NCBI GenBank assembly: GCA_963692475.1
Contig: OY829950.1
Coordinates: forward strand, 2,520,504-2,584,503
DNA length: 64,000 nt
Direction of reading: 5' to 3'
Source: Candidatus Cloacimonadales bacterium
Lineage (GTDB): Bacteria; Cloacimonadota; Cloacimonadia; Cloacimonadales; JAFGVF01
Both the position numbers and the translations under genes were made by a program. This document shows, piece after piece, positions 4,107 through 60,477 of the stretch. Every line of letters starts with the position of its first letter. Within the stretch, counting starts at the first letter, position 1. Under the pieces are notes generated by a model. The model made no database searches. It had not been told where the DNA came from and saw only the letters and a program-made list of their open reading frames with translations.

Positions 4107-4969
4107 TGACAAAATATATAGAGATTGAATTTAGATCAGGTAAGATAGCCTATATTAAAGTTGATCATGAATTAGAACTTAGACCTGATGATTCAATTAT
4201 TATTGAAGTCGAACGTGGTATCGATTTTTGTAACATCCTAAGTACCCATGTACCTGAAGAACAAGTCCAAAAACTTAAAAGTGAATATAAAGAATATCAA
4301 TATGTCAGAATGGTGGAAGAACATGATTTAAAAGCCTTAGATATTATTCAAAACAAAGAAGACAAAGCAAGTGCTACTTTCTTAGAAATTCTTGCTAAAT
4401 ATGAATTTGATATGAAGTTAATTAGTACTGTATATCAATATGATGGTAACAAGTTAACTTTCAATTTTACAGCTGATGGAAGAATTGATTTTAGGCTATT
4501 TGTTCGCGAGTTAGCGAATATCTTCAAAACAAGAATAGAACTTCACCAAACAACCGGAAGAGATGAAGCTAAACTTCTTGGTGGCTATGGAATGTGTGGC
4601 AAAGTATATTGCTGTGCTTCATTTATGAGAAAATTTAATCAAGTTACAATTAAAATGGCTAAAGACCAGAACTTAGCTGGCAATTTATCAAAAATATCTG
4701 GTCCTTGTGGAAGATTGTTATGTTGTCTTCAATTTGAAGAAGACTATTATGAAGAGATAGCTAAAGATTTTCCTGTTATTGGTACTAAAGCTCTTTTAAA
4801 CAAACAGATGTGGTATGTCTTTAAAAATGATTATTACAATAAGAAAGTATATCTCTCAGCAGAAGACCAATCTATGGATATAATTAGTTTGGATGATTTT
4901 AAAAAACAAGCAAAAATAAAGTATGTGCCAGATGACGATGACATCAGTTCAATCCCCGGAAGTTATTAA
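4106..4969 (+). CDS. PSP1 domain protein (RicT/YaaT family)
   Basis: Characteristic Cys-rich PSP1 C-terminal region GGYGMCGKVYCCASFM...ISGPCGRLLCCLQFE; start overlaps the upstream stop (TAATG). Confidence 0.85.
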   Translation: MTKYIEIEFRSGKIAYIKVDHELELRPDDSIIIEVERGIDFCNILSTHVPEEQVQKLKSEYKEYQYVRMVEEHDLKALDIIQNKEDKASATFLEILAKYEFDMKLISTVYQYDGNKLTFNFTADGRIDFRLFVRELANIFKTRIELHQTTGRDEAKLLGGYGMCGKVYCCASFMRKFNQVTIKMAKDQNLAGNLSKISGPCGRLLCCLQFEEDYYEEIAKDFPVIGTKALLNKQMWYVFKNDYYNKKVYLSAEDQSMDIISLDDFKKQAKIKYVPDDDDISSIPGSY

Positions 4970-5981
4970 TTTCTTAGACTTAACTCCTACACAAGTTTAT
5001 CAAACTATTAAGGAATTAGGTCAAAGCAAATTTCGAGCTACTCAAGTTTTAGATTGGGTCTATGGAAAACAAGTTTATGATTTCCAAGAAATGTTAAACT
5101 TATCAAAAGATTTGAGGACCCTGCTCAAGCAAAGATTTAGGTTATTCTTACCTAAAGTTATTGAATCATTCAAATCTGAAGATGGTTCTGTAAAATTCTT
5201 ATTAGAACTATGGGATAATTCTCGGATAGAGATGATTCTTATGCCTTCTGAAAAGAGTGCAACTCTCTGCATTTCCTCTCAAGTTGGATGTGCCAGAAAA
5301 TGCAAATTCTGTGCAACAGGTAAGTTAGGTTTAACTCGTAATCTTCTTACTTCTGAGATTGTTGGTCAATTGCTTCTTGCCAGAAAATACATAAAAAATA
5401 GAAAATTAACTAATGTAGTATTTATGGGTATGGGCGAACCTCTTGATAACTATGATAATGTTATCCATGCAGTTAGAATATTTACAGATGAGAGTGCTAT
5501 AAACCTAAGTTCGCGAAAAATTACCATCTCAACTTGTGGAGTGATTCCCAAAATAAATCTGTTAGCAAATGAAGATGTGAAAGTAAAATTAGCTGTTTCC
5601 CTTAATGCTGTACTCGATGCTAAAAGAGATTCAATAATGCCAATTAACAAAATCTTTCCATTAGCTGAGTTGAAGAAAGCACTATTGGATTTTAGACATA
5701 AAACCTCTTATAAAATTACTTTCGAATATGTTATGATTAAGAATTTTAATATAGGTAATGATGATGTTCGTGCACTGTTGAAATTTTTAGGAGACCAATC
5801 CTGCAAATTAAATCTAATTGCTTGGAATCCAGTGCTTGGACTTGACTATGAGGCACCAAACCAGAATGAAATTGAAGAGTTTAAAGCAAAGCTATCTCAA
5901 CTACAATGTCCTATTATTCAACGTGATAGTAGAGGTAATGATATAAATGGTGCGTGTGGTCAGTTAGCTGGGAAAATTTGA
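4923..5981 (+). CDS. rlmN: 23S rRNA/tRNA (adenine-C2)-methyltransferase RlmN (radical SAM)
   Basis: KFRATQVLDWVY N-terminal motif, radical-SAM CxxxCxxC (CARKCKFC), GMGEPLDN, C-terminal GACGQL. The exact start among Met1/4/6 is uncertain (it overlaps the PSP1 gene end). Confidence 0.9.
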   Translation: MCQMTMTSVQSPEVINFLDLTPTQVYQTIKELGQSKFRATQVLDWVYGKQVYDFQEMLNLSKDLRTLLKQRFRLFLPKVIESFKSEDGSVKFLLELWDNSRIEMILMPSEKSATLCISSQVGCARKCKFCATGKLGLTRNLLTSEIVGQLLLARKYIKNRKLTNVVFMGMGEPLDNYDNVIHAVRIFTDESAINLSSRKITISTCGVIPKINLLANEDVKVKLAVSLNAVLDAKRDSIMPINKIFPLAELKKALLDFRHKTSYKITFEYVMIKNFNIGNDDVRALLKFLGDQSCKLNLIAWNPVLGLDYEAPNQNEIEEFKAKLSQLQCPIIQRDSRGNDINGACGQLAGKI

Positions 5982-6003: not shown

Positions 6004-6807
6004 ATGGAGAAAATGGAAGATATTAAAAATATTGCTATCCAAATATTAGGAATTACAGACCCTAAACCCTGTAAATGTGGGGGAGAACATCAAGTATGTC
6101 TCAATTGTAGAGTATGTAGGGCGAATGAAGAAGATCAATTAGCTACTGATTATGATCACTTAGCTCAGTATATTGACCATACAATCTTGAAACCAGAAGC
6201 TACAGAAGCGGCAGTAAAGACTCTGTGCCAAGAAGCTGATTTCTATCTTACCAAGTCTGTTTGCGTTAACCCTTCTTATGTCAAATTAGCTCATGGGCAA
6301 CTAACAAAGGTTTTAACTTGCTCTGTAGTTGGTTTCCCTCTATCGAATTCGGTAACAAATACTATAATTGCAGAAACAAAACAAGCAATTCAGGATGGTG
6401 CTAAAGAAATAGATATGGTAATTAAAGTTTCCTGGCTTAAAGATAAAGATTATCAAAGTGTATTAAGCGAAATATCTGCAATTTCTCAAGTTTGTAGTGA
6501 ACATGGTGCAATTCTTAAAGTGATATTTGAAAACTGCCTTTTAACAAAGGAAGAAATAATTATTTCTGCAATCTTATCTAAAAAAGCCGGAGCAGAATTC
6601 ATAAAAACATCCACAGGATTTAATAAGAGTGGAGCAATATTAGAAGACGTTGCACTTATGAGAAAAGTAGTAGGACCAAAATTGGGTGTTAAGGCTGCAG
6701 GTGGAATAAGAGACCGTGTTACTGCAAAGGCTATGCTCAAAGCTGGAGCTAATAGAATAGGTGCAAGTGCTACTGTTGAAATCTTAAAGGAAGAATATGA
6801 AGATTAA
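6004..6807 (+). CDS. deoC: Deoxyribose-phosphate aldolase with ~55-aa Cys-rich N-terminal extension
   Basis: YIDHTILKPEAT, DMVI, KTSTGF (Schiff-base Lys region) and VKAAGGIR. The DeoC core starts near residue 55 and is preceded by PCKCGGEHQVCLNCRVC. Confidence 0.85.
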   Translation: MEKMEDIKNIAIQILGITDPKPCKCGGEHQVCLNCRVCRANEEDQLATDYDHLAQYIDHTILKPEATEAAVKTLCQEADFYLTKSVCVNPSYVKLAHGQLTKVLTCSVVGFPLSNSVTNTIIAETKQAIQDGAKEIDMVIKVSWLKDKDYQSVLSEISAISQVCSEHGAILKVIFENCLLTKEEIIISAILSKKAGAEFIKTSTGFNKSGAILEDVALMRKVVGPKLGVKAAGGIRDRVTAKAMLKAGANRIGASATVEILKEEYED

Positions 6808-8173
6808 TGTTGCTGGATATAATATAGATAAAAGTTTAATAGACAAATTAGATAAGGTAAAAGCTACTCCAGAAGTTATATCTGCTGCTTATGCCAGAAT
6901 AAGTAGAAGTAAAAAGAATGTAACATCACTGAGAAAAGAAGCCTTATCTGAAGTTGAAAAAGCCAGAAAATCTAATAGTAATATCATCTTTGAGATGGGA
7001 CATAGTTCGATTGCTGAACATGTGGTATTTAATCTTGATTTCTTGGATGTTTCACGTTATTTAACAGAGTTTATCCAGAAGTCTCGTCTTGCTTCTTTTA
7101 CAGAAAAATCACAGCGATATGTTACTTTAACATCAGCTTATTATATACCTACAGAGCTAAGTGATGAAGCAAGAGAAGAGTATATATCTTTAATGGAATA
7201 TCTTTTCTCAAGCTATGAAGAGATGTTTCAGATAGCCAAAAACCAGCTTATTAAAGAGGGCTTCTCAGGCACTCAAAGAGAATTAGAAGGCAAGGCTAAA
7301 GAAGATGCTCGTTATATCTTGCCACTATCAACGCAAACTCAAATGGGTGTTACTATTAATGCTAGAAGTTTAGAGCGTTTATTAAGAAGATTAGACGGCT
7401 GTGGATTGTCTGAAGGGAAAGAGTTGAAAGAGTTGATAGTTAGTCAAGTAAAAGACATTGCTCCTTCTGTTATCAAATATACTGATGCTGAAGTCTATGA
7501 GAAACTTAGAGATAATATACTAGAACTTCCAACTATAGAAAATAAGTTTCATTGGCAACTTAACAGCCATACACTAAATCCTGATCTGAAAATTCTGGCA
7601 TATTATATTTTTGAGAACTGTGGTGAATCTTTGGATAGTATAGAAAAATATCTTAGCTCCTTATCTTATCATGAGTTAAAAGCAATGTTTAACTCTATTT
7701 TCGAAAATATGAAAGCTTATCATTTACCAATAAAAGCTTTTGAGGTTGCTGATTTTGAATTCCAATTCGATATCTCTGCAAGCTGTTTTGCTCAACTCAA
7801 ACGTCATAGAATGGCAACAATAATTAAATCCCAATATGATGTGAATAATGGTTTTGTAATACCTCCTCAACTTAAATTCTTAAAGCAAACAAAAAGATTC
7901 CAAGATGCTTATGATAAAATATCTAAATTATATTCTAAGATAGATGCTAACATTGCCCCTTATTTACTTACAAATGCACATAGAGTAAAAGTAGTTATGA
8001 AAGCTAATCTGCGTGAACTTTATCACTTTAGCAGGCTTAGGAGTGATAGTCATGCTCAATGGGAAATACAAGAACTTTCTGATTTCTTAATCTCTAAGAT
8101 TCAAGAAGTAGCTCCCTTATCTGCTTCCTTGATGATGGGTAAAGATAAGTTTAATAAGACTATCATAAAATAA
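6797..8173 (+). CDS. thyX: FAD-dependent thymidylate synthase ThyX, single chain with two ThyX-like halves
   Basis: First half: HSSIAEH...VSRYLTEFIQKSRLASFTEKSQRYV...ARYILPL...NARSLERLL. Second half: FAQLKRHRMATIIKSQ...NLRELYHFSRLRSDSHAQWEIQ. At 458 aa it is roughly twice a typical ThyX. Confidence 0.8.
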   Translation: MKINVAGYNIDKSLIDKLDKVKATPEVISAAYARISRSKKNVTSLRKEALSEVEKARKSNSNIIFEMGHSSIAEHVVFNLDFLDVSRYLTEFIQKSRLASFTEKSQRYVTLTSAYYIPTELSDEAREEYISLMEYLFSSYEEMFQIAKNQLIKEGFSGTQRELEGKAKEDARYILPLSTQTQMGVTINARSLERLLRRLDGCGLSEGKELKELIVSQVKDIAPSVIKYTDAEVYEKLRDNILELPTIENKFHWQLNSHTLNPDLKILAYYIFENCGESLDSIEKYLSSLSYHELKAMFNSIFENMKAYHLPIKAFEVADFEFQFDISASCFAQLKRHRMATIIKSQYDVNNGFVIPPQLKFLKQTKRFQDAYDKISKLYSKIDANIAPYLLTNAHRVKVVMKANLRELYHFSRLRSDSHAQWEIQELSDFLISKIQEVAPLSASLMMGKDKFNKTIIK

Positions 8174-8189
8174 AAATTAAAACAATAAC

Positions 8190-8224
8190 TAAGAATGCGG
8201 ATGTTATATCCGCATTCTTACTTT
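8190..8224 (+). terminator. Intrinsic terminator after thyX
   Basis: 13-bp perfect stem TAAGAATGCGGAT / ATCCGCATTCTTA with a 5-nt loop, followed by CTTT. Confidence 0.6.
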
Positions 8225-8265
8225 AAAGACTAGGGTACTATCTCAGATTAACAAGTAATTTATTT

Positions 8266-8708
8266 AGCTCAAGCTCATGTATAGTGGTAAAAAAGAGACT
8301 TTTATTCAAATATATTCATTGTATAGTAGAAAGTTACGAGTTTTAATTTACTGTTTATAGTAAATTTTGATTGAAAATAAGACTCTAATAATAGAGTTTA
8401 TAACAATAGTTAGCTGGCGTGTCCTTTAGTTAATGCATTGTTCTTTTATACAAGATCATATTATGTGTATTGAACTAATATATCTTCACTATCATGTGTC
8501 TGTTGGCACTCAGCTTAGTGGATGGCTTATAGATGCCTAATAAACCCCTAATAAACCCCTAATAAACACCCAATAGACTTTCTGGCATAAAGCAGATAAT
8601 GTAGGATTAGCTTTGCCAAGAACAAAAAGACTTAATGTTGGATGTTAACTGGAAATTCTAAAAGATGTGGTTTATTTATGAAATTTCTACAAGACATGAA
8701 CTTGAGCC
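8266..8708. mobile_element. MITE-A copy 1 (non-autonomous, 443 bp) with terminal inverted repeats and 8-bp TSD
   Basis: Ends are aGCTCAAGcTCATGT and ACATGAACTTGAGCC (13/15 TIR). It is flanked by identical ATTTATTT at 8258-8265 and 8709-8716. It is homologous along its length to 34376-34972. No ORF. Confidence 0.8.
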
Positions 8709-8876
8709 ATTTATTTTGTATAAATAGTACATCTTCTAACATTTTCCTAAATTTATATCAAAAAGATAATTTGCTATATCAATATGATATATAAAAAAAG
8801 ATAGAAATTAAAGAAAATTCATGCTATAAACTTATAAGATTAAGTATAACAATACCATACAATAAATTGAAAAGTT

Positions 8877-34338: not shown

Positions 34339-34375
34339 ATTTCTTCCTTCTTCTTCCTTTTATATAATTATATTT

Positions 34376-34972
34376 GGCTCAAGTTCAAGTAATGTTTAAA
34401 AAAAAGAGATTTTTATTATAGTATATTCATTTTATAATAGAAAGTTACGAGTTTAAACCCAAATAATGCAATAGAGCTTTAGTGAAGAGTGCAAATTCTT
34501 TTAGCAAAATAGCTTGCAGAATTCTGACGCATATAATATATATATTCGGAAGAATTATGTAAGTTACTTTTGCAAAAGAATATAGTGCTATTCTCAAAGA
34601 TCTATTGCATTATTTGGGTTAAATTTACTGTAGAGTATATTTTGCTTGTAAATAAGACTCTAATAATATAATTCAAAACAATAGTAAGCAAGCATGCCCC
34701 TTAGAAAAGGTATTGTTCTTTTCGACAAGATCATATTATGTGTATTGAACTTATATATCTTCACTATCATGTTTCTGTTGGCTCTCAGCTTAGTGGATGG
34801 CTTATAGATGCCTAATAAACCCCTAATAAACACCCAATAGACTATCTGACATAAATCAGATAATGTAGGATTAGATTTCCCAAGAAAAAAAAGACTTCAT
34901 GTTGGATGTTAACAGAAAATTCTACAAGATGTGGTTTATTTATAAAATTTCCACCAGACTTGAACTTGAGCC
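34376..34972. mobile_element. MITE-A copy 2 (597 bp, carries a nested insertion) with perfect 15-bp TIR and 8-bp TSD
   Basis: Ends are GGCTCAAGTTCAAGT and ACTTGAACTTGAGCC (15/15). It is flanked by identical TTATATTT at 34368-34375 and 34973-34980. It is collinear with copy 1 apart from the 161-bp insert. Confidence 0.85.
34458..34618. mobile_element. Nested 161-bp foldback MITE (MITE-B) inserted inside MITE-A copy 2
   Basis: 18-bp perfect TIR CCCAAATAATGCAATAGA / TCTATTGCATTATTTGGG, flanked by TTAAA on both sides (34453-34457 and 34619-34623). The empty site is preserved in copy 1 (GAGTTTTAATTTAC near 8338-8351). Confidence 0.75.
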
Positions 34973-34985
34973 TTATATTTAAGTA

Positions 34986-35012
34986 TAAAAAAATGGCAAC
35001 AAAAGTTGCCAT
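34986..35012 (-). terminator. Intrinsic terminator of the 35040-37424 gene
   Basis: ATGGCAAC-TTTT-GTTGCCAT 8-bp perfect stem followed by T7 on the - strand. Confidence 0.75.
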
Positions 35013-40709: not shown

Positions 40710-40777
40710 TAAATCCTCTCTTTATCTATATTCTATCCTCTCTTGAGGATCTCTTCTCTCCTAATTAAGCAAAAAAA

Positions 40778-40948
40778 TATTCCGCAATACCGTGACCGAT
40801 ATTGAAACCGAGAACTATGTTCAAGGTGGGTGTCTACCTTATCGATTTTACCGATCCGTGACAAAGACGGCTTGAGTGCTATCAATGGCTCGACTCCCTT
40901 ATTAATGGCAGTTCTTCTTCAATGTAGGAACACAAATATCGCAGAATA
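40778..40948 (-). ncRNA. Candidate structured ~170-nt RNA, 6S-like rod (alternative: rny leader/attenuator)
   Basis: A 197-bp gene-free gap lies between the zapA stop and the rny start. The two ends of the interval pair into an interrupted helix: UAUUCUGCGAUA with UAUUGCGGAAUA, AUUGAA with UUCAAU, GAAC with GUUC. Both mismatches in the 12-bp closing helix are G-U only if read on the - strand. U7 follows the 3' arm. Confidence 0.4.
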
Positions 40949-40951
40949 AAA

Positions 40952-41614: not shown

Positions 41615-44026
41615 TTACCTCATTTCAATATTATAATTTTTTTCTAAGCTCTGAATAGCTTTTTTCATTAATTGTTCAACAAAATTATCTGTCAATGTTT
41701 TATTTTCAGAATTTAAAGTTAAACTGAATGTTAAGCTTCGTTTGCCTTGAGGGGTATTTTTCCCTTTATATTCATCAATAAGTGAGACGTTTTTCACAAC
41801 TGATTTATTTACAAGCTCTATAGTTGTAATAATGTCAGCTACTTTAACATCAGAATTGACATTAAAAGACAGGTCTCTTATCACATTTGGGAATTTATTA
41901 ATTTCTTGGAAATTTCTTTCTGAGAAATCAATAATCTCATAAATTTGGGTTAGGTCAACATCTAAAATATAGACATCTTGCTTTAATTCTACAGTATCGA
42001 TATCAAAGCTTCTAGCGATTTTAGGGTCAATTTGCCCTATAGAGCCAAGCTTTAATTTTTTGTAGAAGATATCTAAGGAGTGATTTTCTGTATAGTAATT
42101 CTCTAAGGACGGTTCATAGTTAACAGTTAGATTTGTTTCAGCGAACAAGTCTTCTGCAATACCTTTAATATCGTAGAAATCGCATTTTGAAGATTTGTCT
42201 TTCCAGTAATTATCAAATCTATTTCCAGTGAGTAGGACAGTAAGGAATTTCTTCTCTGTAGTAGTCTTATCATTGTTGTTTAGAATAATTTTGTTAAGTT
42301 CAAAAATTCTTACATCTTTATTTCCTCTGTTTATATTGTATTCTGCACAATTTAAAACATTAGATATTAAAGTAGTACGCATTGCTCTTAAAACATTGCT
42401 TTGAGGGTTTTTTAACTCAACTAAGCGTCTTCTATAATCATCTTGGGAAATCTTTAATTTGCTTAAGTTATCTGGGTCGAAAAGAGTCAAGTTTATAACT
42501 TCATAGAGTCCTGCTTTTACCATCAAATCTTTTATTTTTCGTTCTAATCTAAAGATTTTATGATTCATGATTCCTTGAGGAACTGTTTTAACAGGGATAT
42601 TATTATAACCATGAAGTCTGACTATCTCTTCAATTAAGTCAATCTCTCTTAGCAAGTCACCTCTAAAATGAGGAATTTTGTATTTGAGTTTTTCATTTGT
42701 TTCTAATAGTAATTCTAAGCCTAAAGATTTAAGATAAGCCTTAATCTCAGGTAATGGAATACTCGCTCCAAGAAGTAATTCAACTCTTGCTGGTCTAAGT
42801 TCCACTTCAATATTAGCAGAATCAGGGTTAGGATATTCATCAAGATGACCTGCTTGAAGCTGTCCTCCAGCTATTTGTAAAATTAAGTCGATAGCTCTTT
42901 CATTGGTAAATTTTGGTGATTCTGGAGACAAGCCTCTTTCGAATCTATAAGAGGAATCTGAGAAAATTTTATGTCTTTGAGAAGTTCTTCTAACTGTAGC
43001 GTAGTTAAAACAAGCTGATTCAATAACAATATTTTTAGTATTAGAAGTAATTTCGGAATTAGCTCCCCCCATTACACCAGCTAAACCAACTGCTTTTTCT
43101 GCATCAGCAATGACTAAATCATCCTTAGAAAGCTGATAAGATTCACCATTCAAGGCAGGGAATTTCTCACCTTCTAAGGCATCTCTGACAATAATCTGCT
43201 GACCAGCTAATTTATCATAATCGAAAGCATGAATAGGGTGTCCAGTTTCCATTAGAATAAAATTGGTAATATCTACAATGTTATTTATTGGTCTTAGTCC
43301 AACAGCAACTAATCTTTTCTTTAACCATTCAGGAGACTCTTTAACTTCAACGTTTTTTATTACTGATGCAATATATCTATAACATTTGTCTTTGTTTTGA
43401 ATCTCTAATTTTAAAGAATCATTAACATCATTAATGCTTTCCCACTTTTTTGTTTGAGGAAGATGTAATTCTTTATGATAAAGTGCTGATAAGTCCCTTG
43501 CTACACCAAGGATACCTAATAAATCAGGTCTATTAGGGGTGATTTCTACATCATAAACTATATCATTAAAATCTAAATAACTTGCTATATCTTGACCAAT
43601 TGTAGCATTAGGTGATAACTCCATTATTCCTTCATGATCTTCAGAAATGCCCAACTCTTTAGCTGAACAGATCATTCCATGAGAAGCTACACCTTTCAAT
43701 TTGGCTTTTTTAATCTTAAACTCTCCACCTATTACTGAACCTACTGGAGCAAAAGCTACTTTCAAACCTGCACGGCAATTAGGAGCTCCGCAGACAACCA
43801 GTAAGGTTTCTGCTGAACCATCATTTACTATACAAACTTGAAGGTGGTCTGAGCCTTCTAATTTCTCGGCTGATAATACTTCAGCTACTTTAAACTGCTT
43901 CAAATCTTCACCAATATGTTCAATTGCTTCTACTTCGATTCCTGCAAAGGTAAGGTGGTCTTCTAATACTTTAGGGTCTACATCTAAATTAACATAATCT
44001 TGTAACCATTTATAACTTATCTTCAT
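41615..44026 (-). CDS. pheT: Phenylalanine--tRNA ligase beta subunit
   Basis: MKISYKWLQDYV start, tRNA-binding domain, B3/4 and B5 domains, C-terminal FDX-ACB-like region. Confidence 0.95.
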   Translation of the reverse strand: MKISYKWLQDYVNLDVDPKVLEDHLTFAGIEVEAIEHIGEDLKQFKVAEVLSAEKLEGSDHLQVCIVNDGSAETLLVVCGAPNCRAGLKVAFAPVGSVIGGEFKIKKAKLKGVASHGMICSAKELGISEDHEGIMELSPNATIGQDIASYLDFNDIVYDVEITPNRPDLLGILGVARDLSALYHKELHLPQTKKWESINDVNDSLKLEIQNKDKCYRYIASVIKNVEVKESPEWLKKRLVAVGLRPINNIVDITNFILMETGHPIHAFDYDKLAGQQIIVRDALEGEKFPALNGESYQLSKDDLVIADAEKAVGLAGVMGGANSEITSNTKNIVIESACFNYATVRRTSQRHKIFSDSSYRFERGLSPESPKFTNERAIDLILQIAGGQLQAGHLDEYPNPDSANIEVELRPARVELLLGASIPLPEIKAYLKSLGLELLLETNEKLKYKIPHFRGDLLREIDLIEEIVRLHGYNNIPVKTVPQGIMNHKIFRLERKIKDLMVKAGLYEVINLTLFDPDNLSKLKISQDDYRRRLVELKNPQSNVLRAMRTTLISNVLNCAEYNINRGNKDVRIFELNKIILNNNDKTTTEKKFLTVLLTGNRFDNYWKDKSSKCDFYDIKGIAEDLFAETNLTVNYEPSLENYYTENHSLDIFYKKLKLGSIGQIDPKIARSFDIDTVELKQDVYILDVDLTQIYEIIDFSERNFQEINKFPNVIRDLSFNVNSDVKVADIITTIELVNKSVVKNVSLIDEYKGKNTPQGKRSLTFSLTLNSENKTLTDNFVEQLMKKAIQSLEKNYNIEMR

Positions 44027-49131: not shown

Positions 49132-49935
49132 ATGAAAAAAAGTTTTTTAATTCCTCTAATAATTTCCTTGTTACTCCATGGGTTACTTTTCCTATATAGT
49201 ATCGATATACCTGATTATCAAGCTCCTGAAATTAAAGAATTAGCTATTGAGGTGGAAAAAGTAGAAGAAGTTAAGCCGGAATTTGAAGCAGTTAAACAAA
49301 CGAAAACAGCCCAGATTGAAAAAAAAGAGGCAAGTTCAATTCCTATTGATCAGTTTATAAAGCCAAGAATTGAGAGTGAAATTAATTCTAATGCAGATGA
49401 AGACTATTCCTTTAATCTCTTTGATGAAGATGATAGTGATAGATTTCATGATAGAACTCATACCGCTTCTACTTATGCTCAAAGAGATAGAGATATTTTA
49501 GCTCCAAATTCTCATATCATAAATTATGATGTCCATGATATTCATGAATCTCTGGGCGATAAAGATCCTATCAAAATTGATACCAAGAAATTCAGTAAAA
49601 CTAAACAAGATACTATTTTTATCTCTTTTACTGGAACTAATGACTTTTTCAAAGATACCAATTATGGGGGGGATGACTCATTAATCCGTTCACTTTTTGC
49701 AGGAAAAGAGTTTGACCCAACTAAAAAGGTTTCCCAAAAGTGTAAAGTTTATTTCGAAATTAGAGATGGAAAAATTGGTGGTTCTTTAAAAAATTTGGAA
49801 GGAAATAGCGAATTAGCTATCTGGGTTATAGAAATTTTGCAAGATGCTGATAAGGATGGAAAACTTAAAGCTATGAGCTCTGGAGTCTATGTTCTTGAAT
49901 ATCAGAATAAATTAGTTGATATAAATCAAGATTAA
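49132..49935 (+). CDS. TonB-like energy transducer (putative)
   Basis: N-terminal TM with the SxxxH-like LLLHGLLF motif, an acidic linker, and position after exbBD. The C-terminal domain is only weakly TonB-like. Confidence 0.4.
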   Translation: MKKSFLIPLIISLLLHGLLFLYSIDIPDYQAPEIKELAIEVEKVEEVKPEFEAVKQTKTAQIEKKEASSIPIDQFIKPRIESEINSNADEDYSFNLFDEDDSDRFHDRTHTASTYAQRDRDILAPNSHIINYDVHDIHESLGDKDPIKIDTKKFSKTKQDTIFISFTGTNDFFKDTNYGGDDSLIRSLFAGKEFDPTKKVSQKCKVYFEIRDGKIGGSLKNLEGNSELAIWVIEILQDADKDGKLKAMSSGVYVLEYQNKLVDINQD

Positions 49936-50235
49936 ATTAAAATTAGTAATTAAAAAAAAATGTGGTATTGCTTCGCAATGATTAATAATAAGAAAAATAT
50001 TGCCACGGCTAGCACTGATAAACACGAATAAGAAGGAAGATAAGAATCTTCCAATGATATTCGTTTAAGCTACACCTACCTATGCTAATCTCACGAGTTA
50101 CTTTGTGGTTGAATCGAGGATTTGTTTAATTGTTGAAGGGTAGGTTCGAAACCCTCTTCGGTCGGACGAGTTGTCTTTGGAAGCTTGCTACTTCGCTAAG
50201 CTATGTATAATTTATTAGCGAAGGGAGATGGACAT

Positions 50236-50760
50236 CTTGCCCTTATCATTGCAGAAAGCAATGATAATCTTAACTGGGAAAGCGGGTATCTTGCCCGCAT
50301 CATTGCAGAAAGCAATGATTATCTTAACTGGGAAAGCGAGTATCTTACCCGCATCATTGCAGAAAGCAATGATAATCTTAACTGGGAAAGCGGGTATCTT
50401 GCCCGCATCATTGCAGAAAGCCAATGATAATCTTAACTGGGAAAGCGGGTATCTTGCCCGTATCATTGCGGAAAACAATGATAATCTTAACTGGGAAAGC
50501 GGGTATCTTGCCCGCATCATTGCAGAAAGCAATGATAATCTTAACTGGGAAAGCGGGTATTTTGCCCGCATCATTGCAGAAAGCAATAATAATCTTAACT
50601 GGGAAAGCGGGTATCTTGCCCGCATCATTGCAGAAAGCAATGATAATCTTAACTGGGAAAGCGGGTATTTTGCCCGCATCATTGCAGAAAGCAATAATAA
50701 TCTTAACTGGGAAAGCGGGTATCTTGCCCGCATCATTGCAGAAAGCAATGATTATCTTAA
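50236..50760. repeat. Tandem array of ~9.7 copies of a 54-bp unit, each carrying two inverted repeats
   Basis: Unit CTTGCCCGCATCATTGCAGAAAGCAATGATAATCTTAACTGGGAAAGCGGGTAT. Unit starts: 50236, 50290, 50344, 50398 (55 bp, +1 C), 50453, 50507, 50561, 50615, 50669, 50723 (partial). No unique spacers. Confidence 0.95.
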
Positions 50761-50971
50761 ATCCCGAAAAGTGATGGGGAAGCTTTTAGGCTAAGACCCA
50801 AGGGATGAAACCTCGAGTAGAGGATGCCCATAAAAATCGGTCAAATTAATTAGGACTGGACACTCTTGAAGAAACCACCCCGTCAGTGAAATACACTGCC
50901 ACCCCTCCGCGGAGGGGAATGAACAGAAGGTCGAATTATGATTCGCCCTTACGAACAAAAACCATGAGGAT

Positions 50972-52171
50972 ATGATGAAAAACAGAATAATAACTATAAG
51001 CAATATACAGGATGCCCGAGAAATCCTCCAACAAATCGGAGTTTCATCTCAAGGAGTTGAAGTTATGGCACCCAAAGCTATTGGACGTTCTCTTCTTCTC
51101 TACAATGTTGAGACAGGAGCAGCCAATATAATGAAGCAAGAAGCTTTGATAATCGGAGCTGATCTTGCCATGAGTAAGGGAATAGTGGAAGGGGATAAGA
51201 AGCAATCTAATCTTTTATTTATGGGTGGAGCAAACAAAATATTAGCTCTCATTACCAGGATGAGGCATTATACTAGTATGGGACTTCCTGAAATAAGGGA
51301 GCAACTCTCTACTTTTCGTAAGCAATTACTTTACTGGAGCTTAGAAGATAAGGGAAGAGACTTTAAACCAGAGATTATGGGTATTTTAAATGTTACTCCT
51401 GATTCCTTTTCCGATGGTAATCAACATTTTGAAGTAACAAAAGCTCTTTCTCATGCTCTTCAAATGGTAAAGGATGGTGCTTCAATTATTGATATAGGGG
51501 GAGAGTCAACACGACCAGGTTCACCTCGAGTATCTTTAGAACAAGAACTCCAGAGAGTAATACCAGTAATCAAAGCCATAAGAAAAGAGAGCAATGTTAC
51601 TATTTCTATTGATACTTATAAGGCTGAAGTAGCGAGAAAATCCTTAGAAGCTGGAGCAAGTTTTATTAATGATATTACTGCCTTACAGGGCGATAAGAAC
51701 ATGATAGAAGTGCTAAAAGAATTCCCTCTAAGTAGAATATGCTTAATGCACATGCAGGGAAAGCCTGAAACCATGCAAGAAAATCCTCTTTATTCTAATG
51801 TCATAAATGATATTATTAATTTTTTTGCAGAAAGAATCTCTTTTTGCCAAAAACATAATATCAGCTTAGATAGAATTGTCTTAGATCCTGGAATTGGTTT
51901 TGGGAAAAGTTTAAACCATAATTTAGCTATCTTGAAAAGAATTGATGAGTTTCATATTTTAGGTTGTAAAATTCTTCTTGGTTCATCCCGTAAATCATTT
52001 ATCAATATGATTAGTCCGGCAAGTCCCCAAGATAGGGAAGGGGGGACTATGGCAACAACAGCTCTTGCTTACGAAAGAAAAATTGATATTGTCCGTGTAC
52101 ATAATGTTAAGGATAATGCACAGTTAATTCAAGTGTTATCAGCAATAAATGCAACAAAATTTGAGATTTAA
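50972..52171 (+). CDS. folP: Dihydropteroate synthase with ~130-aa N-terminal extra domain
   Basis: GILNVTPDSFSDG, DIGGESTRPG, DPGIGFGK and RVHNV in the C-terminal 270 aa. The N-terminal IGVSSQGVEVMAPKA...ANIMKQEAL domain resembles extensions seen in long-form FolP. Confidence 0.9.
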   Translation: MMKNRIITISNIQDAREILQQIGVSSQGVEVMAPKAIGRSLLLYNVETGAANIMKQEALIIGADLAMSKGIVEGDKKQSNLLFMGGANKILALITRMRHYTSMGLPEIREQLSTFRKQLLYWSLEDKGRDFKPEIMGILNVTPDSFSDGNQHFEVTKALSHALQMVKDGASIIDIGGESTRPGSPRVSLEQELQRVIPVIKAIRKESNVTISIDTYKAEVARKSLEAGASFINDITALQGDKNMIEVLKEFPLSRICLMHMQGKPETMQENPLYSNVINDIINFFAERISFCQKHNISLDRIVLDPGIGFGKSLNHNLAILKRIDEFHILGCKILLGSSRKSFINMISPASPQDREGGTMATTALAYERKIDIVRVHNVKDNAQLIQVLSAINATKFEI

Positions 52172-54203: not shown

Positions 54204-54855
54204 GAGACTGTTCAACCATCAATCCACCCTCTCCAATAGCTTATCCTTAAAGATGTTAATATTGTACAACTTCATGTTTTCTTGACATTTTATAATGATT
54301 GTATATTGGTAACAAAGCCTTTTAACTGTGAATGCGGATGACCACATCCGCGTCCAAGCGAAAGCTTGGAAATTCTTAAAAATCCCAGAGGGATGAAAAT
54401 ATAATAGACAGTGCTCGTTAGACACTGTTAAAGATTTCTAGGAAATCTAAGCCCTAAAGGGGCGACAATATTCATTTTGCCATATTAATTTTTTTACTAT
54501 ACTTATTATTACATAAAAACAACTTGTACAATGAAATTATCCCTCTGTTTACATGATTACTAAGAGGTATTATCGCCCCTCCGGGGCTTAGGCTACGGGG
54601 GAATTCTTCTACAGGGTCTAACGAACCCTGCCTATTATGTCAGCATCCTTTGGGTCTTCGCCTAAAAGCTTCGCCCTCACAAGTCAGGATTTAAGAGGCC
54701 TTCTTCCAATATCCAGAATTTAAACCTGAATGAAAACTATAAGTCAATTTTGAAAATAAAAATTATCTTTGTATAAAGTGTGTACTATTTTGAGTCCTTT
54801 TAAAATTAAAGTGTTGAATATCAATTCGTTTATTTGAACAGTCTCTTGTAATCAC
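54204..54855. mobile_element. 652-bp foldback MITE-like element (MITE-C) with 12-bp TIR and 7/8 TSD
   Basis: GAGACTGTTCAA (54204-54215) and TTGAACAGTCTC (54844-54855). Flanks are TTGTAACC (54196-54203) and TTGTAATC (54856-54863). The interior, ~54340-54700, is one long imperfect palindrome. Confidence 0.6.
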
Positions 54856-60400: not shown

Positions 60401-60477
60401 GCCCCCGTAGCTCAGTAGGATAGAGCAGTTCCCTCCTAAGGAAAAGGTCAGCCGTTCGAATCGGCTCGGGGGTGCCA
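60401..60477 (+). tRNA. tRNA-Arg (anticodon CCU)
   Basis: Folded by hand: 7-bp acceptor (G1-U72 wobble), D arm GCTC/GAGC, anticodon loop CT-CCT-AA, T arm AGCCG-TTCGAAT-CGGCT, encoded CCA. Confidence 0.9.

Follow-up and report, generated by a model that had tools for sequence, protein, structure and literature searches.

A strain-variable array of 54-bp double-hairpin units upstream of folP in a marine Cloacimonadota bacterium, probably a minisatellite grown from an interspersed repeat

The spacer ahead of folP in a marine Cloacimonadota bacterium carries a tandem array of a 54-bp double-hairpin unit, here called module M1. With a probability that we put at about 0.6, this array is a non-coding hypervariable minisatellite, produced by tandem amplification of M1 from a family of interspersed repeats of the REP/BOX/MIRU kind. 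On the same reading, some repeats of the M1 family ride on TIR-bounded, MITE-like elements, and the family would have colonised intergenic spacers in a marine Cloacimonadota clade. As such, the array would most likely be a fairly ordinary kind of bacterial repeat.

In the window, that is, the whole 64-kb stretch of DNA that was analysed, Tandem Repeats Finder places the array at 50234-50760 (period 54, 9.7 copies, 94% matches, score 954), where it outranks all other tandem arrays by far. Cut from position 50236, it comprises nine full units and one partial unit on the plus strand (50236-50760), each unit with two hairpins, as an earlier sequence-only reading of this DNA had described. All units run head to tail on one strand, with no alternating orientation, and they abut without spacers, so that the array is not a CRISPR, in agreement with that reading. 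Two sub-motifs of the unit are each found nine times in the array and nowhere else in the window, against 0.00-0.02 occurrences expected from shuffles. M1 opens with the leader TTAACTGGGAAnG, continues with a 7-bp hairpin of the form G[C/U]GG...CCGC and another of 8 bp, and closes with the tail ATCTTAA. The hairpin spanning the unit junction can be lengthened to a 7-bp stem around a 3-nt loop (GCGGGTA-TCT-TGCCCGC), one of its pairs being U.G on the plus strand. Unit 4 (50398-50452, plus strand) measures 55 bp owing to the 1-nt insertion already noticed in the earlier reading, an extra C (GAAAGCCAATGAT) in the 3' arm of hairpin 2 that breaks every reading frame. Unit comparison also bore out the exact identity of units 6+7 (50507-50614) with units 8+9 (50615-50722); the 108-bp block that stands twice at 50507-50722 (plus strand) is a recent block duplication via unequal exchange or slippage.

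The array lies in an operon spacer, co-oriented with the genes on either side, in the neighbourhood rplT, infC, add, exbB, exbD, tonB-like gene, folP, coaE and pyk. The tonB-like gene (49132-49935, plus strand), the last one before the island, is named from its position after exbB and exbD and has no Pfam match. The gene on the other side, folP (50972-52171, plus strand), encodes dihydropteroate synthase (PF00809); databases place its start one codon later, giving a product of 398 aa. From the tonB-like stop (49935) to the folP start (50972) there is a gap of 1036 bp containing no ORF with any homologue, which corresponds to the 1-kb gene-free island upstream of folP reported before. Within it, the array is separated by ~300 bp from the tonB-like stop codon and by ~210 bp from the folP start codon. 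The GC content of the island is ~42-44%, versus 32.6% for the window.

The 5' flank of the island (49936-50235, plus strand) has several hairpins of an ordinary kind, a TATAAT (50206-50211) lying within a 9-bp inverted repeat and, in the final ~18 nt, a degenerate version of the 3' part of the unit. The 3' flank (50761-50971, plus strand) is made up of the tail ATCTTAAATCCC, an insert, the motif GGGATG and a decayed second module, and it ends at the ribosome-binding site and start codon of folP. Judged from its sequence, this flank is the continuation, after M1, of an ancestral composite element. An inverted copy of the stretch 50755-50807, 85% identical, is found at 54644-54696.

A second assembly of the same species (L053) provides a second allele. 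Its array, at 4986-5785, has 14.7 copies (15 units) versus 9.7 in the window, with 99.1-99.3% identity between the two over 13 kb of flanking sequence; the 5' flank 49936-50235 is 99% identical there and has no match at the other loci compared. Both arrays have identical first and last units and share internal variants. The 55-bp unit with the extra C occurs four times in L053 and once in the window, and a two-unit block of L053, in which a +C unit is followed by a T..G..A unit, is repeated three times and differs from the block duplicated in the window. Short-read assemblies often mis-size tandem arrays, and the copy number of the window array could have been reduced by collapse. However, two independent assemblies agree in their end units and have internal variants in common, and the sister contigs of the second assembly project are single contigs of 2.9-3.3 Mb, presumably, to judge from their names and sizes, obtained from long reads. 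Because an independent assembly has the array with the same first and last units, it is unlikely to be an assembly artefact, and the chance that either the array or its copy number is one appears close to negligible.

This second allele also bears on the possibility that the array codes for a protein of 18-residue tandem repeats, (LARIIAESNDNLNWESGY)n, in which case the extra C would be an error in sequencing or else mark a programmed frameshift. The 54-bp unit is divisible by 3 and, leaving out the extra C, an ORF of 196 aa would extend from the ATG at 50203 to 50794. Nevertheless, the presence of four +C units in the independent 15-unit allele makes this insertion a true variant, and the ORF structure differs between strains (156, 55 and 87 aa in L053 versus 188 aa in the window). 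Four of the six frames are open merely because the unit lacks stop codons. In this respect, the count of three plus frames and one minus frame given in the sequence-only reading has to be corrected, since the consensus unit is open in two plus and two minus frames, and the three plus-strand ORFs were listed because of the frameshift. Two of the ~10 in-array substitutions are synonymous when scored by eye. No 18-aa repeat frame is conserved at the homologous loci L053 and L054, and the single-unit homologues of L054 are placed in non-coding mosaic DNA. A word-indexed search of 5.8 billion proteins, a collection from which the array ORFs of L053 are absent, gave no homologue of the array ORF. 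The 29 matches obtained in an exhaustive phmmer search are other repeat proteins with an 18-residue period (19-45% identity) and were rejected as resonance artefacts, and the Pfam matches (Tudor_5, LAMTOR and others), which have no significant individual stretch, were discarded as repeat-sum artefacts. With no genuine protein homologue and no Pfam domain, a coding function is highly improbable, and the non-coding role favoured in the earlier reading is upheld.

The array locus is syntenic on chromosomes of 2.9-3.3 Mb. In relatives whose FolP is 66-81% identical, the tonB-folP spacer has a length of 11, 62, 70, 111, 262 or 317 bp. A different situation is found in the relative L054, in which this spacer is occupied by a 1.3-kb repeat mosaic with two single unit homologues (4715-4776 and 4893-4954), 80-83% identical to the array unit, and no array. 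FolP relatives in JGI metagenomes, 35-43% identical in full-length matches, are without arrays and too distant to be informative. From these comparisons, the 54-bp array appears as a lineage-specific insertion into an operon spacer.

M1 is not confined to the array. A dispersed single copy is located at 54319-54381 (plus strand), with leader and tail as in the array and different stems (GCGGATG/CATCCGC and TCCAAGC-GAAA-GCTTGGA). Copies with other stems are also present in the relative L057, at 7958 and 1378, the latter scoring 64 bits against the M1 model though it was outside the training set, and a further copy, at L060 3135, was recognised by a pattern search and by eye. Weaker matches (~23-28 bits), comprising the leader and hairpin 1 without hairpin 2, were obtained at L057 2880, L055 9863, L055 10224 and window 8182. 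The last of these, at 8182-8223, has the form AAGAATGCGGAT-GTTAT-ATCCGCATTCTT with an M1-like leader; it begins 9 nt past the stop of the ORF 6797-8173, and its hairpin looks like a terminator. In the genome of the window, M1 is found in the tonB-folP and pyk-T9SS spacers, and in relatives it is found in the infC-add, add-exbB and pyk-sulfatase spacers, the family as a whole comprising ~8 loci in ~5 lineages for ~170 kb of the clade scanned. The tandem number varies from 1 (window 54319; L057) to 2 separated copies (L054), 10 (the window array) and 15 (L053). Most dispersed copies are in convergent or divergent spacers, where their orientation is uninformative on strand. Taken on sequence grounds, M1 is most likely a member of a small, modular, hairpin-rich family of interspersed repeats in this marine Cloacimonadota clade.

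The dispersed copy at 54319 is borne by a MITE-like element of 642 bp (54204-54845) with perfect 12-bp TIRs (GAGACTGTTCAA), whose flanking 8-mers, TTGTAACC and TTGTAATC, form a 7/8 direct repeat. A homologous element with the same TIRs is present in a different spacer at L057 1088-1494. One-mismatch TIR matches at 43333 and 44755 fall inside pheT and pheS and were dismissed as chance, and no TIRs or target-site duplication were found around the folP island itself. A second MITE, of 177 bp, lies at 34450-34626 of the window; a 97% identical copy is present in the tonB-folP spacer of L056, and the same MITE is found directly upstream of folP in L060 too, where the contig end falls within a MITE, 224 bp before folP. 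The tonB-folP spacer appears, from the repeats lodged in it, to be a landing site for mobile repeats.

The pairing of both hairpins across the family was followed in an alignment of M1 copies (A4), in which 96.9% of cells are paired and 6 of the 15 pairs are changed on both sides; it has to be noted that this alignment is fitted to the model and that several of its rows are related by descent. None of 500 shuffles matched the observed values, and slid controls gave 24-42% paired. The L054 units show a compensatory change in hairpin 1, where pair 7 has gone from A-U to U-A. In the dispersed copies, pairing is kept and stem sequences are changed, and the alternative of double-hairpin modules offered in the earlier reading fits best, because compensatory changes preserve both hairpins in these copies. 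The array itself is predicted to fold with z = -5.8 and -63 kcal/mol per three units on the plus strand, and with z = -5.0 and -54.5 kcal/mol on the minus strand, relative to shuffles; both flanks are unexceptional (z = -1.1).

Inside the array, the stem substitutions listed in the sequence-only reading were found, although that list was incomplete, lacking the G>A at position 4 of unit 3, a further stem-position change that invariably accompanies the GCGAG variant in the unit before it. Three of the in-array stem changes keep a plus-strand wobble pair, three disrupt pairing on the plus strand and one is a bulge, which shows no sign of selection for pairing and is compatible with neutrality, lending no positive support to an RNA role. 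The transitions are split 3:3 between strands within the array, and the wobble pairs among the dispersed copies are all U.G on the sense (plus) strand, so the question of strandedness is answered only weakly.

A role of the array as a DNA-level platform for protein binding was also considered, either centromere- or iteron-like, as in the analogy drawn in the earlier reading, or BIME-like, with a nucleoid protein or gyrase binding to phased dyads at the putative sites ATCATTGC/GCAATGAT. Direct repeats with dyad symmetry and a period of 54 bp, ~five helical turns, would suit such a role, and E. coli BIMEs are bound by IHF and gyrase (PMC3184786). The F-plasmid sopC and iteron arrays resemble this one in being direct tandem repeats of ~40-55 bp, each with a short inverted repeat. 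However, these are located on plasmids beside partition or replication genes and have a conserved binding sequence, whereas the array is chromosomal, in the spacer of a housekeeping operon on chromosomes of 2.9-3.3 Mb, with no par/rep genes within 6 kb on either side and no similarity to the plasmid or phage records searched. Close relatives lack the island or have only a very short one, and the copy number is unstable, varying between strains. Moreover, the dyads covary in the dispersed copies, which preserve pairing and alter the stem sequence, the opposite of what characterises a sequence-specific operator, and on one strand the dyads are imperfect owing to T.G positions. The plasmid analogy was abandoned on these grounds, and a DNA-binding array in any form is improbable.

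Conservation of both hairpins and of the single-stranded leader and tail across dispersed copies would also be compatible with a functional multi-hairpin RNA or regulatory VNTR. According to this proposal, the TATAAT at 50206-50211, 25 nt ahead of the first unit, would belong to a promoter of its own, giving a long folP leader or a separate ncRNA whose modules bind or titrate a specific factor (for instance an RNA-binding protein, RNase or antitermination factor), with the copy number tuning folP. The sense-strand bias of the inter-copy wobble pairs, the position of the array directly 5' of folP and the strain-level length variation, which is expected of a tunable element, point in the same direction. 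Against it, the array exists in one species-level lineage only, while the same operon of relatives has spacers of 11-111 bp, and the hairpin loops are not conserved across copies (AGAAA, AAG, AAA, GAAA, GAUA). In addition, stem-breaking variants are as frequent within the array as stem-preserving ones, the candidate promoter, whose spacer measures 15 nt, did not pass a consensus scan, and Rfam gives no match. We regard this proposal as unlikely. Its more specific version is more doubtful still, namely that M1 is the recognition unit for a specific RNA-binding factor and the array an RNA decoy or insulator, tunable through its copy number, by which folP expression is set or the factor titrated; if true, this would make the array a VNTR-driven counterpart, on a chromosome, of multi-site sponge RNAs.

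Searches for known elements gave no copy of the unit. Rfam covariance models over 49800-51100 gave two chance matches of snoRNA models (E > 8, over the folP start) and none in the array, and no Rfam family reached the gathering score at the related loci. There was no match to the whole island by blastn in plasmid and phage collections; a 21-mer hairpin-2 pattern gave 40 single, unrelated chance matches and no array in GTDB species genomes; and a 34-mer unit pattern gave 0 matches in JGI metagenomes and IMG/VR. Among defined classes of element, an attC/integron site was rejected because the flanking 7-mers are direct and not inverted, a tmRNA because neither ARAGORN nor Rfam gave a match, a folate riboswitch ahead of folP because of the lack of an Rfam match and a fold z of -1.1, and an intrinsic terminator at hairpin 2 because no U-tract follows it. 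No paper on interspersed repeats in Cloacimonadota was found in the literature searched. As far as these searches reach, the M1 family is apparently undescribed before, which agrees with the statement in the sequence-only reading that no described element has this unit.

Taking the array as a minisatellite derived from an interspersed repeat, its origin can be proposed as follows. A composite copy, consisting of M1 and a second module, would have landed in the spacer of the otherwise tight exbB-exbD-tonB-like-folP-coaE-pyk operon. The two hairpins are bracketed by the near-identical 7-mers TCTTAAC and TCTTAAA, 54 bp apart, and slipped-strand mispairing or unequal exchange between them could have duplicated M1. 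Inter-unit homologous exchange would then expand and contract the array by one- and two-unit blocks, leading to 10 units in one strain versus 15 in another. By analogy with known repeats, the array is probably transcribed along with the genes of the exbB-exbD-tonB-folP operon and not translated, its plus-strand transcript being an intercistronic or 5'-leader segment with 20-30 local hairpins. By the same analogy, we infer that any effect on folP would be at most passive and in cis: the array may impede 3'-exonucleolytic degradation of the message upstream of it or, alternatively, partly attenuate transcription that reads through into folP, or insulate folP from it. A role as a sequence-specific protein-binding platform would not be expected.

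This minisatellite can be compared with several families of bacterial repeats. The boxB module has 45 bp, versus 54 bp for M1 here, and 10-15 tandem copies are at the high end for boxB. Like BOX elements (boxA-boxB(n)-boxC), the repeats are small, modular, intergenic and interspersed, with strong predicted stem-loops, one internal module of variable tandem number that lends itself to VNTR use, and frames open on both strands that give rise to spurious ORF calls; M1 shows both dispersed intergenic copies, in the ~170 kb scanned, and the internal module in variable tandem number. In pneumococcal BOX, the boxB module also occurs in variable tandem number, ORFs are present on both strands, and the elements form part of the UTRs of neighbouring operons, with which they are transcribed (PMC3049150). 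The differences are that the phylum is another one and the M1 unit has no match in the collections searched, for which reasons homology is not expected, and that the modules flanking M1 are not a matched A/C pair able to pair with each other. MIRU-VNTRs of Mycobacterium tuberculosis are likewise units of 40-100 bp, tandem and dispersed, located in operon intergenic regions, with internal GC-rich inverted repeats and strain-variable copy number (PMC3184786), and the 10 versus 15 copies of a unit in this size range, within an operon, are a polymorphism of this kind. However, MIRUs are reported to have short ORFs with ends that overlap the flanking genes, while the array is 200-300 bp from both genes and its frames are broken by the extra C.

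The unit is also a short GC-rich imperfect palindrome with predicted stem-loops, as in REP sequences. REP/BIME elements of enterobacteria and pseudomonads share with the present repeats their GC-rich imperfect palindromes, extragenic location and clustering in mosaics, to which the L054 spacers bear a resemblance, and the transcription of the array would be a further likeness by analogy. Nevertheless, within one genome REP palindromes have a conserved sequence, in contrast to the M1 stems, which vary among copies, and REP orientation alternates in BIMEs, whereas the array is strictly head-to-tail. REP/BIME can stabilise upstream mRNA or attenuate transcription (PMC3184786, PMC3049150), and both REP/BIME and MIRU have been reviewed (PMC3184786).

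Unless it regulates folP, the array opens no new mechanistic question. It is a clean natural case of the birth of a minisatellite from one interspersed module bracketed by a 7-bp direct repeat, and it is usable as a strain-typing VNTR for this marine population. Arrays of this kind also lead to spurious ORF calls, three of which were made in L053, and they probably break contigs too, as in L060.

The strongest tandem array of the window lies at 50234-50760 (Tandem Repeats Finder: period 54, 9.7 copies, 94% matches, score 954) and, cut from 50236, comprises nine complete units followed by part of a tenth. The two-unit duplication and the 1-nt insertion claimed in the sequence-only reading are both found, units 8+9 being identical to units 6+7, and unit 4 being 55 bp long with an extra C in GAAAGCCAATGAT (hereafter the +C unit). 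The inverted repeat described at the unit junction can be lengthened to 7 bp (GCGGGTA-TCT-TGCCCGC), one of the pairs being U.G on the + strand. Both sub-motifs occur nine times each, against an expectation of ≤0.02; the rest of the 64 kb lacks them. The surrounding gene-free island measures 1036 bp, from the end of the tonB-like ORF (49935) to the start of folP (50972), and has a GC content of ~42-44% versus 32.6% for the window.

An assembly artefact is an unlikely source of the array, given that two independent alleles are available. The second, L053, belongs to the same species and was assembled independently; its 13 kb of flanks are 99.1-99.3% identical to the window, and it holds 14.7 copies. 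Compared unit by unit, the two alleles share their first and last units and differ in the interior: L053 has four copies of the +C 55-bp unit and three of a two-unit block (the +C unit followed by a C9T, A18G, G23A unit), and the junction variant GCGAG/CTTACCC turns up repeatedly in it, with GCGAG seen three times and a GTGAG variant once. Thus, the presence of the array in both assemblies with different interiors shows that it is real and that it grows and shrinks by one- and two-unit blocks.

Three + frames and one - frame had been thought open across the array; the consensus unit is actually open in two of each. The +C unit moves phase 0 (LARIIAESNDNLNWESGY) into a stop-containing phase, which is why three ORF fragments (156, 55 and 87 aa) are called in L053 at 4980-5819; a single chimeric ORF of 188 aa is called in the window. 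No homologue was found among 5.8 billion word-indexed proteins, a collection that lacks the L053 ORFs and so offers no positive control; phmmer, run exhaustively on 1.84 billion representatives, returned nothing below 1e-30. Its 29 matches are unrelated repeat proteins with an 18-residue period (19-45% identity), that is, periodic resonance, and none of the Pfam matches had a significant stretch of its own. In the best frame, 2 of the ~10 substitutions within the array were judged by eye to be synonymous. With no frame kept between the two alleles and no protein homologue, the coding reading is rejected and the earlier non-coding view stands.

The loci of related assemblies were taken as the DNA around the closest FolP homologues, found by exact-sequence look-up; those homologues with source-given names belong to Cloacimonadota. 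The gene order exbB-exbD-tonB-like-folP-coaE-pyk is conserved, and in each of four relatives the operon is part of a single 2.9-3.3 Mb contig and is therefore chromosomal and housekeeping. The tonB-like-to-folP spacer differs widely in length: 11 bp in L061 (FolP 66% identical to that of the window), 62 bp in L062 (72%), 70 bp in L055 (77%), 111 bp in L057 (81%), 262 bp in L063 (70%), 317 bp in L056 (77%) and 1306 bp in L054 (80%), with 1036 bp in the window and 1314 bp in L053 (99%). These lengths indicate that the operon was ancestrally tight and that the island is a lineage-specific accretion.

The array unit corresponds to one copy of a 54-bp module, M1 (leader, 7-bp hairpin 1, 8-bp hairpin 2 and tail ATCTTAA), which is also found dispersed. 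The L054 spacer is without array and contains two separate single homologous units CTTAACTGGGAATGTGGGCTTCCAGCCCGCATCATTGCAAGGCAATGATATATCTTCAATCCC (4715-4776 and 4893-4954; 80-83% identical to the window unit), in which the hairpin 1 substitutions preserve pairing (A-U to U-A, U.G to C-G, C-G to U.G) and the hairpin 2 stem is kept with a 3-nt loop. At 54319-54381 of the window, leader TTAACTGTGAATG and tail ATTCTTAAAAATCCC are those of the array unit, and the stems are entirely different (GCGGATG-ACCA-CATCCGC and TCCAAGC-GAAA-GCTTGGA). A covariance model built from four copies of this kind recovered a further full copy outside its training set (L057 1316-1378, - strand, 64 bits), together with weaker matches of ~23-28 bits in which the leader and hairpin 1 fit and hairpin 2 does not (L057 2880; L055 9776-9863 and 10137-10224; window 8182-8223). 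In L060 a similar leader and two unrelated hairpins follow a stop codon.

Across the 13 distinct rows of an alignment fitted to this model, with few independent lineages among them, pairing is kept in 96.9% of cells and six pairs are changed on both sides; 0 of 500 shuffles matched these values, slid controls were 24-42% paired, and a four-sequence alignment agrees. The double-hairpin modules proposed earlier are supported in this way, both hairpins staying paired across copies. The other proposal, a centromere or iteron array, is rejected: the locus is a chromosomal housekeeping operon, the array is lineage-specific and unstable in copy number, and the dyads covary.

The 54319 copy lies within a MITE-like element of 642 bp (window 54204-54845; L053 9230-9871) with perfect 12-bp TIRs (GAGACTGTTCAA / TTGAACAGTCTC), long inverted arms in its interior and a conserved promoter-like TTGACA-N16-TATTGG just 5' of M1; the flanking 8-mers TTGTAACC and TTGTAATC are a possible target-site duplication. 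A homologous element with the same termini is located in a different spacer in L057 (1088-1494). The last array unit and its 3' flank are colinear with composite copies (M1, ATCTTAAATCC...GGATG, a decayed second module), and an inverted copy of 50755-50807 lies at 54644-54696 (85%). A palindromic MITE of 177 bp (window 34450-34626, ends TTTAAACCCAAATAATGCAATAG...) recurs in the tonB-folP spacer of another species (L056 5842-5984; 97% identical over 143 bp), directly upstream of folP at L060 1-118, where the contig ends, and at L061 3804-3964. Separate MITE copies in tonB-folP spacers imply that independent insertions hit the same spacer. M1 appears to travel on mobile-looking elements, with this spacer as a landing site.

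Many short hairpin modules make up the mosaic spacers of L054 (4695-6000, 8937-10447 and 12926-13149), and the clade is unusually rich in structured intergenic repeats. A tandemly duplicated 466-bp unit lies in the folP spacer of L054, a 71-bp hairpin tandem (x 3.1) is among the relatives' mosaics, and a unit of ~361 bp is duplicated at L055 9776-10224. A non-coding dispersed repeat of ~470 bp (window 8256-8724 and 34365-34989, 82-86% identical; no Rfam match at gathering score) contains a CCTAATAAACC mini-tandem, its second copy being split by the 177-bp MITE.

In single copies, near-identical 7-mers 54 bp apart bracket both hairpins (TCTTAAC...TCTTAAA in the window lineage, TCTTAAC...TCTTCAA in L054). 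In the array, the junction falls exactly between ...GATAATCTTAAC and TGGG...; the partial unit that closes it stops at ...GATTATCTTAAA, with TCCC after it. The array probably arose from such a bracketed module; the first duplication would have occurred by slippage or unequal exchange between the 7-mers, and later expansion would be driven by homologous exchange among units.

As + strand RNA, three units fold at -63 kcal/mol (z = -5.8), and as - strand RNA at -54.5 kcal/mol (z = -5.0); the island flanks are unexceptional (z = -1.1). On the sense strand, the wobbles between dispersed copies are all U.G, never A.C, a pattern that mildly favours a single-stranded form of that strand. Within the array, G4A, C9T and C48T keep + strand pairing, G50A, G23A and G28A break it, and +C adds a bulge; the array itself looks neutral. 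No U-tract terminator follows hairpin 2, and a consensus promoter scan gave nothing convincing, the sole candidate being a TATAAT (50206-50211) whose -35 element is poorly spaced. Because of these strand, fold, terminator and promoter findings, we read the array as a set of passive, untranslated hairpins that is probably co-transcribed. By analogy with published work (PMC3049150, PMC3184786), it may influence mRNA decay or read-through in a REP/BOX-like manner. Of the alternatives still standing, a functional RNA or regulatory VNTR is the most interesting.

As the sequence-only reading had supposed, no described element shares this unit, Rfam, plasmids, phages, GTDB representatives, JGI metagenomes and IMG/VR all being without match; in the literature, no description of interspersed repeats in Cloacimonadota was found. 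The family is new and its kind well known: like BOX, MIRU and REP/BIME, it is a modular interspersed hairpin repeat, here with an internal module amplified into a VNTR.

At window 8182-8223, 9 nt past the stop codon of ORF 6797-8173, there is a perfect 12-bp hairpin (AAGAATGCGGAT-GTTAT-ATCCGCATTCTT) whose leader resembles that of M1 (TAACTAAGAATGCGG vs TTAACTGGGAATGCGG), a hint that hairpin 1 is akin to the terminator-like hairpins found at gene ends. In every array unit (e.g., window 50262-50276), at L057 7958, 1378 and 2880 and at L055 9776, the tail and leader of M1, which are single-stranded (AUCUUAAC / CUCUUCA / CUCUUAA), resemble the core of boxA (CGCUCUUAA / GCUCUUUAACAA) in nut and rrn antitermination sites; this match is short and may be due to chance. 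FolP (window 50972-52171) and its counterparts in all Cloacimonadota relatives have ~398-400 aa; DHPS typically has ~280 aa. PF00809 is the only domain listed, and the first ~120 residues may be an N-terminal extension outside it. The window also holds a 6S RNA at 40775-40950 (-) (RF00013, 62 bits) and a tRNA-Arg(CCT) at 60401-60477.
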